Source of the DNA: a virus
DNA length: 10,494 bases
UHGV virus genome: UHGV-1956501
Reading direction: 5' to 3' (one strand)
In this document: positions 1 to 5,861 of the stretch, in pieces
Numbering within the stretch: position 1 is the stretch's first letter
Layout: the number at the start of each line of letters is the position of its first letter
Translations under genes and position numbers: made by a program
Notes under the pieces: model-generated
Databases searched by the model: none
Seen by the model: only the letters and a program-made list of their open reading frames with translations
What the model was told of the DNA's origin: nothing

Positions 1-96
1 AGTATATTCTACATAAGTTAAGTATATGTACTTAGTACCATAAGTACTAGATCTTTTATTTTTTATTATTTAGTTATTTTAGTTATATTCTTTATG

Positions 97-177
97 TGTC
101 CGTATCACGGACAGTTGGTGTCCGTATTACGGACAGATGTGTCCGCGTGACGGACAGTAGTGTCCGTATCACGGACA
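97..177. repeat. Four tandem 17-bp palindromes TGTCCG-N5-CGGACA (97-113, 119-135, 140-156, 161-177), phased 21-22 bp; candidate operator/iteron array
   Basis: Read directly: TGTCCGtatcaCGGACA, TGTCCGtattaCGGACA, TGTCCGcgtgaCGGACA, TGTCCGtatcaCGGACA. Arms are perfect reverse complements; start-to-start spacing 22, 21, 21 bp (about two helical turns). Sits beside an AT-rich tract (40-95) with TAGTTAT direct repeats. Confidence 0.85.
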
Positions 178-252
178 GTTAATAGTATCTGTTCTAGAGC
201 GAACATAAAACATACGAATCCTTATAGTACAGATATTTAAGTTTTTACTGGT

Positions 253-603
253 CTAACCAGTTGTTGACATTCGAATAACCTCTTCTGGTGGCAAAACTTT
301 GGAAAATGTGCATCTTTTACCTCTCCCTTGTGTGGATATTTCAACCACTCCTGCACATTCTAAAGTTTTAACGCACGCTGCTGCTTTTGTTTTCTTTATC
401 CCAACATCTGCTGCAATTTTCCTTGTGCTGGGTGTGAAGCGTGAATTTCCTCCAAGCTTGTACCAGTTGTGCAGGTAGCAGTATACGATCTTGTCATATA
501 AGTCAAGAACAACAACCTCCCCAGTTGTGTCATTCAAAACTTTTGACATAGACAGTATTTCAAGGGGGACTTTAAGATATAGCAGCTTATCCCCATCTTT
601 CAT
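253..603 (-). CDS. Hypothetical small protein, possible helix-turn-helix DNA-binding protein
   Basis: 116-aa ORF with ATG start and AGGAG Shine-Dalgarno just upstream on the minus strand; no competing plus-strand ORF. Segment FTPSTRKIAADVGIKKTKAAACVKTLECAGVV looks HTH-like. Function is inference only. Confidence 0.55.
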   Translation of the reverse strand: MKDGDKLLYLKVPLEILSMSKVLNDTTGEVVVLDLYDKIVYCYLHNWYKLGGNSRFTPSTRKIAADVGIKKTKAAACVKTLECAGVVEISTQGRGKRCTFSKVLPPEEVIRMSTTG

Positions 604-650
604 ATCTCCTGATTCTCCTTGTGTGGCAATTTTCTTTAAAATAGCAGGGA

Positions 651-1226
651 TTACTCCCCGCTGTCAATAGCAAGACTCATTGCAATACGGTATGCCTCTT
701 CTAATGGTAAGAGTCTCCCCCACACATCCCAACCGACATCAAACTGCCTGCCAAACAACTGCTGTGTGGTTCCGTGAGCATGACCGAACAGTTGGACTGA
801 TCCGTGAGGCTTTCTGTTCCACTTTGCAAACTGGTAATGGCTCATACAGATCAAATTCTTGTTGTGGCGAAGCTCGTAATAATCTACAACCTCATGACCG
901 AACTCTTTCATAATTCTGACAGTCGTCCTTGTGTCATGGTTGCCACGAACAAGAATAATATGCCCGTTCAACATATTTAGAATATCTGGAAGTAAGTTGT
1001 TGATATTCTTATCATTAGTGCACGCAATATCTCCCAGGTGGAACACAGTGTCTGCAGGTGACACAACAGAGTTCCACTCGGTGATGATTCCCGCATTCAT
1101 ACTGTCAAGATTGTGATCATATTGAGATCTGTGTTTTTGACATGAATCAAACTCCATGACCCGCTGTTGGAGAAAGTGTGTGTCGCTTGTTACAAAGTAT
1201 TTTAATGCAGATGACCTAGTAGACAA
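651..1226 (-). CDS. Calcineurin-like metallophosphoesterase
   Basis: Ordered metallophosphoesterase motifs in the translation: SDTHF (D-x-H), HLGDIA (GD), VRGNHD (GNHD), later His, FGHAHG (GH-x-H). Longest ORF starts at TTG (1224-1226) with no in-frame ATG before motif I, so the start codon is uncertain. Confidence 0.75.
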   Translation of the reverse strand: MSTRSSALKYFVTSDTHFLQQRVMEFDSCQKHRSQYDHNLDSMNAGIITEWNSVVSPADTVFHLGDIACTNDKNINNLLPDILNMLNGHIILVRGNHDTRTTVRIMKEFGHEVVDYYELRHNKNLICMSHYQFAKWNRKPHGSVQLFGHAHGTTQQLFGRQFDVGWDVWGRLLPLEEAYRIAMSLAIDSGE

Positions 1227-2106
1227 AGGTCTTGTAACCAGTCGGTATTATCCAGATCTTGGATTAAAGATCTATAAATATGCCAGAAAAGTATTCTACA
1301 ACAATCTGTGGCATTTGTCTCCGCGTTTACTGGAGTGCCGAGGTATTGTTGTTGGCAATGAGGGGAATGTTGTGGCATGGCCTTTCACAAAAGTATTCAA
1401 CTTAGGAGAAAACTCCACCAACCTACCGGACAGTAAACTTGTTACTGCGGTAGAGAAAAAGAACGGATTCCTTGGTGTGGTGTCATCTCATAAAGGTGAA
1501 CTATTGTTCTCAACAACCGGGTCTCTTGATTCTCCATATTGTAACCTTGCAAAGGAAACCATCCAGGAGCAATGTGGTAATTTAGATCTTATCAAGAAGG
1601 TTATGGGCAATGAAAATATGACATTCATGTTTGAAATTTGTCACCCCTCAGATCCGCATATTGTTCAGGAAGATCATGGCGCATATTTGATAGGTTGCAG
1701 ATATAATGATTCTGGAATAATACTACCAGAAGCAGCTTTAGATGGGATTGCCAAATACCTTGGTGCAAAACGTCCTCACACTGTGCGTGAAATTCCGTTC
1801 AGTTATGCAAAAGAATTAGCTGCAGAAACAAGAGGTGAAGGGTATATGATTCGTAAGCCTTACTACCCTTATGATCTGCAGCTGAAGATTAAGTCTCCAT
1901 ACTATCTGGCACGGAAGGCCGTAATGAGGGGTAAAGCTTGGAAGATTTGGGATGATGATATCTTTAAACGTGTTGACGAAGAGTTTTACGGCATGGTAAA
2001 CTTCATTCGCAACAACTACACAGAGGATGTATGGAACTGCCTCCTGGAGCAGGAACGCCGTGAGATACTTGACTACTATTTCCACAACGAGGACTATATG
2101 CAATGA
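1156..2106 (+). CDS. rnlA: ATP-dependent RNA ligase, T4 Rnl1 (RnlA)-like, with short C-terminal region
   Basis: Nucleotidyltransferase motifs: motif I K-x-N-G (EKKNGFLGVV), motif IV EGYMIRK, motif V LKIKSPYY. N-terminal segments KYFNADDL, LLECRGI and KVFNLGEN match the T4 Rnl1 N-terminus as recalled from memory. ATG 1156 overlaps the divergent phosphoesterase 5' end; GTG 1180 is an alternative start. Confidence 0.75.
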   Translation: MTRCWRKCVSLVTKYFNADDLVDKGLVTSRYYPDLGLKIYKYARKVFYNNLWHLSPRLLECRGIVVGNEGNVVAWPFTKVFNLGENSTNLPDSKLVTAVEKKNGFLGVVSSHKGELLFSTTGSLDSPYCNLAKETIQEQCGNLDLIKKVMGNENMTFMFEICHPSDPHIVQEDHGAYLIGCRYNDSGIILPEAALDGIAKYLGAKRPHTVREIPFSYAKELAAETRGEGYMIRKPYYPYDLQLKIKSPYYLARKAVMRGKAWKIWDDDIFKRVDEEFYGMVNFIRNNYTEDVWNCLLEQERREILDYYFHNEDYMQ

Positions 2107-2453
2107 AGAAGTTGATTGTGTGGCTGGATGACTTGAGAGACCCGTCAAATTATGGGCTCCCAGACGCTATTTGGCTAAAGAATTCCTCCGAGTTTATGGA
2201 TTTTATTAACGATAATAGAAAGCTCTACAGACGCGTTTCTGAGTGGCATATGGACAACGACCTTGGAGAGGTATTAGAAGGGTACGATTGCCTATCTATG
2301 TTGGAGGAAAAATTTGTATTTGGTAAGCCTCCTGTAGTTGACAACGTGAAGATTTTCGTGCATACTTCTAACCCATCAGCTGCTCGTAAATTCATGCTTG
2401 CAGCTGACTCGTTTAAAAAGTTTGGAATAGAGATTAAACAAAACATCTACTGA
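2103..2453 (+). CDS. Hypothetical protein (116 aa); possible CheY-like receiver / flavodoxin-like fold
   Basis: ATG overlaps the upstream stop (ATGA, 2103-2106), suggesting translational coupling. Acidic residues and a Thr/Lys pair at CheY-like spacing (D9 D10, D51/D53, T88, K105/K106); fold assignment is speculative. Confidence 0.6.
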   Translation: MKKLIVWLDDLRDPSNYGLPDAIWLKNSSEFMDFINDNRKLYRRVSEWHMDNDLGEVLEGYDCLSMLEEKFVFGKPPVVDNVKIFVHTSNPSAARKFMLAADSFKKFGIEIKQNIY

Positions 2454-2461
2454 GGACACTT

Positions 2462-3223
2462 ATGCGACGACTTATTATTATCTCCGGTGCTGGTTTGAGC
2501 GCTGAATCTGGTATTCCCACTTTCCGATCTGGTAGCACTGCAATGTGGGAGAATTTCAGCATCGATGAGGTGTGCAACATTCACACCTTTGCCAAGAACT
2601 ACTATAAGGTGCATGACTTTTACAATGCACGTCGTGTAGCTCTAGGCAGTGTTGAGCCTAACCTTGCACATCTTCGGATCGCTGAGTGGTATTCCCGCTG
2701 GTCTGGTCGTGTGATCAACATTACCACCAATGTGGATGATTTGCTGGAGCGTGCTGGTGTAAAACATGAAGATATTTTACATGTCCACGGGTATTTGCCA
2801 GAAATAGTCTATGAGGACGATGAAGGAAGTAACGTCATTAAGGACATTGGATACTCTGAGGTAGATGCAGAAAAGTATACCTGGGTTAAGCCTAATGTGG
2901 TGTTCTTCGGAGAAGTAGCTCCGAAGTATACAGACATGTACGACCTGTTGACTTCCCTTACGAGTAATGATATGGTTATCCTTGTAGGGTGTTCCAACAC
3001 AGTTATCAATTTTAACTGGGAGCTATTCCCTGCCTGCAATAAGGGAACCAAGCTGCTGATCGTTAACAAATACGACTCACAGCATCTAGAGGAGAATGGC
3101 ATTTCACGTAGTGATATTTACCAATATGAGGATCGCGGCATCCCAGTTTGGTTTAACGGGGCGGTTGATGCTTTCTCTGATAAAACATTCATTGAGACCG
3201 TAGAAAACTTTATGGAACTTTAA
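2462..3223 (+). CDS. Sir2-family protein (sirtuin-like NAD-dependent deacylase / ADP-ribosyltransferase / NADase), no zinc ribbon
   Basis: Sirtuin Rossmann motifs: ISGAGLSAESGIPTFRS (GAG-x-S-x-x-SGIP-x-FR), ITTNVDDL (TQN-x-D-x-L-like), LHVHG (catalytic His-Gly), VVFFGE (FGE), ILVGCSNTV. No CxxC...CxxC zinc-binding module is present. Confidence 0.85.
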   Translation: MRRLIIISGAGLSAESGIPTFRSGSTAMWENFSIDEVCNIHTFAKNYYKVHDFYNARRVALGSVEPNLAHLRIAEWYSRWSGRVINITTNVDDLLERAGVKHEDILHVHGYLPEIVYEDDEGSNVIKDIGYSEVDAEKYTWVKPNVVFFGEVAPKYTDMYDLLTSLTSNDMVILVGCSNTVINFNWELFPACNKGTKLLIVNKYDSQHLEENGISRSDIYQYEDRGIPVWFNGAVDAFSDKTFIETVENFMEL

Positions 3224-4322: not shown

Positions 4323-4578
4323 TCTTGCTAAACCTGTAGAAGCACACCAGTTTGACGGAAGCTCTTCATCAGTATCTGATCTGCAACGGTGGATTGATAC
4401 AGGTGTGTTTACATCGTCACCTGTTCGGACCAGAGATCTTCGTCGCATGTGTGAGCTTGTAGAGCCGTTTGGTAACCTAGTCTTGTACCAGGGAGATTGG
4501 TTAGTTGACTTTATGGGAGACTGGTTGGTAATGAGTAAAGAAGAGATGTTTAAAATTTTTAAGGAAGAGGCCGAGTAA
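4309..4578 (+). CDS. Hypothetical protein (89 aa)
   Basis: Strong Shine-Dalgarno AAGGAGG (4296-4302) 6 nt before ATG 4309; stop overlaps the downstream start (TAATG). No recognisable motifs. Confidence 0.55.
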   Translation: MPLFNLAKPVEAHQFDGSSSSVSDLQRWIDTGVFTSSPVRTRDLRRMCELVEPFGNLVLYQGDWLVDFMGDWLVMSKEEMFKIFKEEAE

Positions 4579-5861
4579 TGCATCAAATCAAAACAACACT
4601 GTACGCACTGAATAAAGATGGCAGCTACCAACAGTGGAAAGTATTCACGGATGGTGATAAGGTTATCGTAGAGTTTGGCAAGCTTGATGGTAAACTGCAA
4701 TACAAAGAGACGATCTGCACACCTAAGAACGTTGGTCGCGCCAATGAAACTACAGCTGAGCAACAGGCCGAGCTGGAAGCGATCAGTAAGTGGGAAAAAC
4801 AGGTCCGACTTGGGTACGTGGAGAGTATGGAAGATTGTGAGCAAGGTGTTGATCTTCTACCCATGTTGGTGCATGACTACCTGAAGCGTGGCAAGGCACT
4901 TAAATTACCTTGCTGGATCTTGCGTAAGTTAGATGGCCTTCGTCTACTTGTTGTTTTCCAGAATGGTGAGCCTAAATTTATTTCCCGTGGTAATAAGTCC
5001 TACCCTATTCAAGGAAAGCTTCTGGAGCAACTTCGCTCTTTCCACCTAACCACCGGGATTAAACAGCTCGACGGAGAGCTCTATATTCATGGTCTTCCTC
5101 TGCAGAAAATAGTGTCTCTTGCTAAACGGTGGCGCACACAGGAAGAAATTCAGGCCGAGATCGATAAAGACTACAAGGCAGATAAAAAACGCCGTCAGGC
5201 TGCGATTAAGGCAGGTTTAGCAACATACAAAAACTTCAACAAGATGGACATTCCTGTTGATGTTGAGCCTGTTCGTGATGATTTGCGTTACGGAGGGTAC
5301 TGCAGCTACGATCTGGAGTATCACATTTTTGATATTCCTAGCGACAAGGTGTGGTGGGATCCAGAAACAGAGTCTGGACGCTGCAAGGATCTTATGGATG
5401 CAGAGGATACCGTTACCACTCTGATGCTTGACCATATCAAGGTTGTTGACGCAGAGCTTGCGTACACAGTTGATCATTGCGAAGAATCTGTTGGTATATT
5501 CATGTCCGAAGGATATGAAGGTACTATCATGCGTAATTTCTGCGGTAAATACGAGTACGGTCAGCGAACATCTGAAGCATTGAAATGGAAAAAGTTCAAC
5601 GACGCAGAGGTGAAAGTTATTGACGTTGAGAAAGATAAGAATGACGAAGGTGTTCTTATCTGTGTTGACAAGGAAGGTGTTGTTGTTAAAATGAAGATGA
5701 AAGGTACGCACGAGGAGCGTAGCTATGACAGGATGCAGGAAATGATCGGAAAGTTCGTCACCTTCAAATATCAAGCAAGGACAGAAGACAACAACTACCA
5801 ATTCCCTGTCGGTATCTGCGTCCGAAATGTTAACCCAGATACTTGGGAGGTTCTGGAATGA
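4578..5861 (+). CDS. ATP-dependent DNA ligase with about 115-aa N-terminal extension
   Basis: Covalent nucleotidyltransferase motifs in order: motif I ILRKLDGLRLLVV (K-x-D-G-x-R) with downstream ISRGNK, motif III LDGELYIHG, motif IV EGTIMRN, motif V LKWKKF, C-terminal OB-like region. ATG overlaps upstream stop (TAATG). Confidence 0.8.
   Translation: MHQIKTTLYALNKDGSYQQWKVFTDGDKVIVEFGKLDGKLQYKETICTPKNVGRANETTAEQQAELEAISKWEKQVRLGYVESMEDCEQGVDLLPMLVHDYLKRGKALKLPCWILRKLDGLRLLVVFQNGEPKFISRGNKSYPIQGKLLEQLRSFHLTTGIKQLDGELYIHGLPLQKIVSLAKRWRTQEEIQAEIDKDYKADKKRRQAAIKAGLATYKNFNKMDIPVDVEPVRDDLRYGGYCSYDLEYHIFDIPSDKVWWDPETESGRCKDLMDAEDTVTTLMLDHIKVVDAELAYTVDHCEESVGIFMSEGYEGTIMRNFCGKYEYGQRTSEALKWKKFNDAEVKVIDVEKDKNDEGVLICVDKEGVVVKMKMKGTHEERSYDRMQEMIGKFVTFKYQARTEDNNYQFPVGICVRNVNPDTWEVLE

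Follow-up and report, generated by a model that had tools for sequence, protein, structure and literature searches.

Iteron origins with a winged-helix initiator are a classical kind of element. The lambdoid origin consists of iterons and an AT-rich region located midway within the O gene; O dimers bind the iterons, each of them an imperfect inverted repeat, and for unwinding, two iterons with the AT tract are enough (PMC7466680). The iterons annotated in the lambda genome (NC_001416) are TCCCTC-AAAAC-GAGGGA and its variants, and they start after codon 116 of O. In the RepA_N plasmids (pSK41/pTZ2162; PDB 5kbj, 4pql), a tandem array of binding sites is combined with an AT-rich unwinding element and a winged-helix initiator, and the rep gene is located beside the array and not around it.

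The rV5-like phages (Vequintavirus) are widely used as candidates for the biocontrol of E. coli O157 and for therapy; to our knowledge, their replication origin has never been located. An array of four palindromes in a genome of this type is described here. Judging by sequence comparison, it is probably the iteron part of the phage replication origin, bound by the product of the neighbouring 116-aa gene. The window, i.e., the whole analysed stretch of 10,494 nucleotides from the UHGV virus genome UHGV-1956501, starts at approximately 64.16 kb on the map of rV5_ev147 (LR597647.1), and its first 3 kb show 90–98% identity to about 120 Vequintavirus genomes; the window itself is rV5-like, at approximately 97% identity. 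It opens inside a 660-bp non-coding region flanked by the 116-aa gene, annotated either as 'putative transcriptional regulator' or as 'replication initiation protein', and by a gene for a 192-aa protein of unknown function. Further to the left follow a tRNA cluster and the genes for terminase and portal, and a divergent transcription switch is found approximately 1.4 kb rightwards. A helicase-primase and a DNA polymerase of the T7 type are encoded by the phage itself. The features of the region are collected in Table 1.

Table 1. Coordinates of the features of the candidate origin region (positions in the window).
Feature	Position	Strand	Details
Conserved AT-rich segment	1..53	none	9-bp inverted repeat GATCTAGTA...TACTAGATC at its ends
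AT-rich tract, candidate DNA-unwinding element	40..96	none	TTTAGTTAT x2 at 69-86; GATCTTTTATTTT at 50-62
Iteron 1	97..113	none	TGTCCG-TATCA-CGGACA, exact match; copy closest to the AT-rich tract
Iteron 2	119..135	none	TGTCCG-TATTA-CGGACA, exact match
Iteron 3	140..156	none	TGTCCG-CGTGA-CGGACA, exact match; spacer diverged
Iteron 4	161..177	none	TGTCCG-TATCA-CGGACA, exact match; copy closest to the winged-helix gene
Spacer between gene stop and array	178..252	none	75 bp
Winged-helix gene, candidate iteron-binding initiator	253-603	(-)	116 aa
Sigma-70-like promoter of the winged-helix gene	638..667	(-)	TTGACA-18-TG-TATTTT, consensus match only

A preceding sequence-only reading had described four copies of TGTCCG-N5-CGGACA at intervals of 21–22 bp. 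All four are indeed exact matches, with start-to-start distances of 22, 21, and 21 bp, and when extended, the repeat unit is about 22 nt long (GTGTCCG-N5-CGGACAG and a linker). The same reading correctly noted that the third copy has a diverged spacer (CGTGA, versus TATCA, TATTA, and TATCA in the other copies) between conserved arms, and these arms are invariant among relatives. No further copy was found in the 10.5-kb window, even with up to two mismatches; in 200 dinucleotide-preserving shuffles, the mean number of matches was 0.14, and none reached four. In the complete rV5_ev147 genome (136,384 bp), the palindrome is confined to the array (64,260–64,340), and only two copies with two mismatches and none with one mismatch occur outside it. 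This genome-wide search excludes a generic hairpin scattered over the genome. The 'VRxTD' reading frame of the array is not the frame of the winged-helix gene. In Rfam, the array and the neighbouring GC-rich element matched no family, the sole match (rli43) being at chance level. A site for a host factor was dropped as a reading: neither DnaA boxes nor IHF consensus sites were found in the array region, and the LexA, NifA, and GlrR-type motifs have spacings unlike that of TGTCCG-N5-CGGACA.

The geometry of the locus is that of the lambda origin. Each of the two has four iterons, which are inverted repeats of 17–18 bp with dyad symmetry and the same 6-N5-6 form, spaced at about two helical turns (20/24/23 bp in lambda and 22/21/21 bp in rV5). 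In both cases, the iterons are located directly downstream of the DNA encoding the initiator winged helix and precede an AT-rich tract of approximately 40–55 bp, which in rV5 lies on the array side away from the winged-helix gene, as in lambda-type origins. The codon of O after which the lambda iterons begin equals the length of the rV5 protein, and transcription enters the lambda origin just as it enters the candidate origin of rV5. There are also differences. The iteron sequences are not the same (TCCCTC in lambda and TGTCCG in rV5), and the lambda origin is inside the O gene, whereas the rV5 array lies 75 bp past a stop codon. Lambda O has 299 aa, with a C-terminal part matching DnaD-like and replisome-organiser PHROGs, whereas the rV5 protein is a single winged-helix domain of the length of the N-terminal part of O, without the C-terminal domain that recruits P/DnaB. 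The 116-aa protein matched neither Phage_rep_O nor phrog_277, and an hhalign comparison of the rV5 family profile with residues 1–116 of lambda O gave a probability of 0.2%, i.e., no direct similarity. In addition, lambda uses the replisome of its host, whereas the rV5 phage has its own T7-type helicase-primase and polymerase. Given that an intragenic origin, the C-terminal domain, and detectable homology to O, three features that define the lambda family, are absent, the locus is not filed as a strict member of it.

The position of the gene beside the array, the tandem sites, the AT-rich element, and the winged-helix binder (in rV5, a candidate one) are shared with the RepA_N plasmid origins. 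However, the RepA_N matches of the rV5 protein fall short of significance, with E about 1 and a Foldseek probability of 0.5–0.75. Plasmid iterons are mostly asymmetric direct repeats bound by monomers, whereas those of rV5 are palindromes, and plasmid Rep proteins carry a second domain, unlike the rV5 protein.

The gene next to the array, previously noted as a small HTH gene whose product is an evident candidate for the binder, does encode a winged-helix protein, and the array begins 75 bp past its stop codon. The promoter-like site of the gene agrees with the consensus in 10 of 12 positions and has an extended -10 TG. In Pfam, the protein reaches 24.5 bits for HTH_36 (cut-off 25) and 27.1 bits for DUF6945 (cut-off 28); precomputed Pfam annotation assigns PF13730 to its cluster representatives. 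Its full-length match, with an E-value of 2.5e-80, is to PHROG 12838 'replication initiation protein', which is its own genus-level family and bears a name that was itself inferred; weak matches to phrog_8102 (7.5e-6) and phrog_428 (9.8e-4) were also obtained. The AF2 model, with a modest pLDDT of 63, contains a three-helix bundle (H1-H2-H3) and a beta wing. Sequence and fold searches in the PDB indicated 4RO3, a protein of unknown function, generic MarR/GntR-type proteins, and, weakly, RepA_N. Taken alone, the 116-aa protein is indistinguishable from a regulator. Its generic winged-helix fold, which is also like that of MarR/GntR regulators, counts against the origin reading, and so does its lack of a domain for recruiting a helicase or a loader.

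The protein family is almost restricted to the genus: a search among 1.8 billion representatives (word-based search, full HMMER) revealed, apart from its members, no more than a few HTH_36/DUF6945 proteins with E-values from 1e-4 to 1e-3. In the loci of the closest relatives outside the genus (L074 and L075), no phased array is present 3' of the gene, which also argues against the origin; GGTAC-type palindromes are dispersed there in the upstream non-coding region. Two of the HTH_36/DUF6945 relatives, P0011 (217 aa) and P0012 (194 aa), have acidic tails (...DEDPDAPF and ...DCDEAPF) that are absent from the rV5 protein; these tails resemble the C-terminal tip of SSB that docks replisome proteins.

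The AT-rich tract next to the array, which had been pointed out together with its TAGTTAT direct repeats, is 87.5% AT at positions 40–95, compared with 57.6% in the whole window; the GC content of positions 51–100 is 14%. The repeats, at 71–77 and 80–86, belong to a perfect 9-bp tandem, TTTAGTTAT x2 (69–86). Further left in the tract, GATCTTTTATTTT (50–62) matches the pattern GATCTnTTnTTTT, which we take to be the consensus of the E. coli oriC 13-mers, and this is the single match on both strands of the 136-kb genome. The inverted repeat GATCTAGTA...TACTAGATC has arms with 100% complementarity and 40 nt between them; the right arm occupies positions 45–53, and the left one (L001:5996-6004, in the coordinates of the rV5_ev147 locus) crosses the window edge. 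GATC (Dam) sites are present in both arms, and the phage encodes two N6-adenine methyltransferases.

A GC-rich non-coding element of about 270 nt (L001:5690-5960, corresponding to 63,850-64,120 of rV5_ev147), which is highly conserved and looks structured by eye, is situated between the AT tract and the gene that follows, starting approximately 40 bp to the left of the window. It contains short ORFs only and was found in Vequintavirus alone. A covariation analysis of either strand yielded one compensatory pair against eight broken ones, at a divergence too low to be informative. Possibly it is a non-coding RNA associated with the origin.

Cumulative GC skew has its global minimum at about 65 kb, at the transcription switch and beside the array. 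Since coding-strand slopes are similar in all transcription blocks, the skew tracks transcription and gives no independent support for an origin; it was rejected as evidence. In the rV5 genome paper, skew analysis aimed at the origin showed only transcription switches, and the origin was not found (PMC3606486).

Several other features of the window can be noted. At positions 1195–1202, about 545 bp of rV5_ev147 (L001:7206-7750) is absent; with it, the polynucleotide kinase gene and the divergent promoter region are lost, as are the start codons of the genes for the phosphoesterase and the RNA ligase, and the junction is an 8-bp microhomology, AAGTATTT. Either this is a naturally occurring deletion mutant, or the gap arose in assembly. 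An RNA-repair-like set is encoded at positions 651–3223 (metallophosphoesterase, T4 Rnl1-type RNA ligase, 'cyclic-phosphate processing receiver' (cREC_REC), and Sir2), and an ATP-dependent DNA ligase gene is located at 4578–5861. Eighteen records that carry the title 'Campylobacter phage' and give C. jejuni as host share about 97% identity in this region with rV5-like phages of E. coli, which suggests mislabelled or contaminating phages in that data set.

Conservation of the locus was compared in an alignment of nine genus-level sequences, whose 116-aa proteins are 86–100% identical. Only 1 of the 48 arm columns is variable, compared with 4 of the 20 columns of the 5-bp spacers. The arms of iteron 1 are invariant in the nine sequences, and those of iteron 3 remain so while its spacer varies; in iteron 2, one arm reads TGCCCG in six of the eight aligned relatives, with no compensating change in the other arm. 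The most variable intergenic part is the 75-bp linker that leads from the stop codon to the array; about a quarter of its columns vary, as estimated from the alignment by eye. Half-sites that hardly change, next to variable spacers and a variable linker, are consistent with recognition by a protein. Almost no variation within the genus is seen in the AT tract either, or in the segment with GATCTAGTA...TACTAGATC at its ends.

Like the GC-rich element, the winged-helix gene and the 192-aa gene are restricted to Vequintavirus. Other genera of Vequintavirinae differ in gene order and in intergenic palindromic repeats, and no orthologous comparison is therefore available. In a Seunavirus (L032:2158-2262) and a Klebsiella phage (L033:1945-2051), TATTCC-N6-GGAATA occurs in two to three copies with 24-bp spacing, and in a Henunavirus (L035:2211-2253), a 20-nt repeat occurs twice with 23-bp spacing. 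These repeats are located in the divergent intergenic region upstream of the phosphoesterase/RNA-ligase block and could be analogous control or origin sites.

IMG/VR viral contigs were scanned for two adjacent copies of the palindrome, which revealed 18 contigs from seven protein families, with a GC content of 30–70% and lengths of 7–169 kb. Their loci contain 2–7 phased copies (3–7 in six of the families) with a spacing of 20–25 bp, and every array is located within, or at the 3' end of, a gene encoding an N-terminal winged helix. Five of the seven families match PHROGs annotated as 'replication initiation O-like', 'replication initiation protein', or 'DnaD-like helicase loader'; HTH_36 is present in three families, above the cut-off in one. 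The order in all origin-like loci is the winged helix followed by the iterons, and in rV5, L007, L010, and the L014 family, the iterons are followed by a stretch with a higher AT content than the contig and with direct repeats of 9–12 bp. The rV5 layout is found in L013, a 169-kb contig with a 120-aa winged-helix gene, a stop codon, four palindromes, and an AT-rich repeat. In L007:4906-5030, from a viral contig with 70% GC, the spacer types CGTGG and TATTG alternate, those of rV5 being CGTGA and TATTA/TATCA; despite nearly the same spacers, no similarity between the L007 and rV5 proteins was detected.

A scan of one genome per bacterial species added 37 further loci. Arrays of 3–6 copies at prophage-like loci, in contigs of Actinoplanes, Treponema, Kiritimatiellae, and Parachlamydiaceae (L040, L042, L043, and L047), are embedded in ORFs with matches to PHROGs of O-like initiators (E-values down to 1e-26), and 117–217 residues precede the first iteron. 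The O-like initiator loci of metagenomic phages and prophages (L006-L023, L040, L042, L043, and L047) share with rV5 the half-sites, the 5-bp spacer length, and the position after the winged helix. Unlike in rV5, the array in most of them is in-frame within a protein of 250–510 aa with a C-terminal domain; the short-protein layout of rV5 is shared only by L013 and the L006 family. The proteins of these loci show no BLAST-level similarity to the rV5 protein, a tblastn search of the array-bearing loci with the 116-aa protein gave no match, and a profile scan of viral contigs confirmed no loci. However, an hhalign comparison of the rV5 family profile with the N-terminal domains of array-bearing initiators gave a probability of 94% and an E-value of 1.3e-7 over the HTH core. 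The weak PHROG matches of the rV5 protein (8102 and 428) recur in the proteins that bear the arrays of L006, L042, and L043, and these proteins have PHROGs 391, 678, and 345 in common with lambda O. The link between the rV5 protein and lambda O is thus indirect, passing through the shared PHROGs of third proteins.

The position of the array just past the 3' end of the gene also brings to mind a function in RNA, with the palindromes forming hairpins in the 3' UTR of the winged-helix mRNA that act as terminators, REP-like stabilisers, or RNase processing sites. The transcript strand folds far better than its shuffles (-59.5 kcal/mol, z -7.6), but this is a trivial result of repeated palindromes. 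No stem is followed by a U-tract, no terminator-like site was detected, and the only change of an arm within the genus, from TGTCCG to TGCCCG, has no counterpart in the opposite arm. In addition, the array is translated inside an ORF at most other loci, where a terminator would be harmful. Such a role in RNA is very improbable.

Hardly more credible is a site for packaging (pac) or of the partition type, to which a terminase small subunit or a centromere-binding protein would bind. The gene for the terminase large subunit is situated about 4.3 kb off, in the same strand block, in one bacterial locus (L045) the array is found 24 bp past a terminase large-subunit gene, and the assembly MG065672.1 breaks approximately 74 bp past the gene stop, at the array start. 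However, repeats commonly break assemblies, the neighbouring gene is of the initiator type and not of the terminase type, and no partition ATPase is annotated nearby. The genome, moreover, is reported to be circularly permuted (PMC3606486), which also speaks against packaging at this site.

Eight Burkholderiales/proteobacterial loci from metagenome-assembled genomes carry the same 17-bp palindrome at the stop codon of a sigma-54 activator gene. Six of them (L044, L046, L052, L054, L057, and L064) have two adjacent copies and one more copy 76–79 bp away, and L041 and L072 have two copies only. These palindromes look like upstream activating sites of enhancer-binding proteins. The gene has PAS, sigma-54 AAA+, and Fis-type HTH_8 domains, as scanned in L044; neither a winged helix nor an AT tract was seen at these loci, and the class of the binder differs from that in rV5. 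The first ten ORFs of the window contain no Sigma54_activat or HTH_8 domain, and none is annotated in rV5_ev147. Given that the palindrome also occurs beside sigma-54 activator genes, the motif alone is not diagnostic of an origin.

These sites, apparently bound by an activator, lend some weight to an operator or roadblock bank in rV5. The winged-helix protein would then be a transcription factor controlling leftward transcription into the downstream unit, composed of the GC-rich non-coding element, the 192-aa gene, and the tRNA cluster; it would activate or repress a promoter in the AT-rich tract or block read-through from its own operon. Many GenBank records name the gene 'putative transcriptional regulator', and the fold search gave mostly MarR, GntR, and Rrf2 regulators with similar scores. 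In the L074 and L075 relatives, the palindromes are in an upstream region that contains a promoter, and since no terminator is present between the gene and the array in rV5, a roadblock would have transcription to block. However, a scan for sigma-70-like promoters, as distinct from phage-specific types, found none on either strand within the array or next to it, and the promoter-like site of the gene itself is 460 bp from the array. A factor governing a regulon would be expected to have more sites, and there are no further ones in 136 kb. Finally, four phased sites and an AT tract past the gene of the binder represent the layout of an O-like origin at all comparable loci. With a motif that is not diagnostic, relatives lacking a downstream array, and a protein lacking a helicase-recruiting domain, the operator or roadblock keeps some credit, although we regard it as unlikely. 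Thus, of the two roles proposed from the sequence alone, operator bank or replication origin, the origin is favoured by the recurrence of the array with O-like initiators and by the lambda geometry, and the operator is weakened.

If the array is an origin, the four 17-bp palindromes would be occupied by dimers of the 116-aa protein, with a single monomer on each TGTCCG half-site. Since 11 bp separate the half-sites and 21–22 bp (two helical turns) the sites, the dimers would all lie on one face of the DNA. A complex similar to the lambda 'O-some' may bend or wrap the DNA and so open the adjacent tract with 87.5% AT, where the T7-type helicase-primase and DNA polymerase of the phage would initiate replication. 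Transcription of the PNK-phosphoesterase-winged-helix operon into the array might assist the opening, like pR transcription at ori-lambda; no terminator-like site was detected between the stop codon and the array.

A bolder proposal can be formulated, which is quite doubtful as a whole. An initiator of 116 aa, consisting of the DNA-binding domain only and acting on four extragenic iterons, would fire a T7-type replisome without a loader-recruiting domain, maybe with the help of operon transcription and RNA of the GC-rich element. The TGTCCG-N5-CGGACA palindrome would then be an ancient site of winged-helix initiators in phages of Proteobacteria, Actinobacteria, Spirochaetes, Chlamydiae, and Kiritimatiellae.

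Literature searches revealed neither a description of these iterons nor a paper joining iterons with rV5-like phages. The array and its neighbouring gene provide a precise origin candidate of approximately 140 bp and a candidate initiator for the rV5-like phages. If the assignment is true, a lambda-style origin would operate in a large virulent myovirus with a T7-type replisome. The iteron sequence recurs across otherwise dissimilar phage initiators and could aid the annotation of origins in metagenomic phages.
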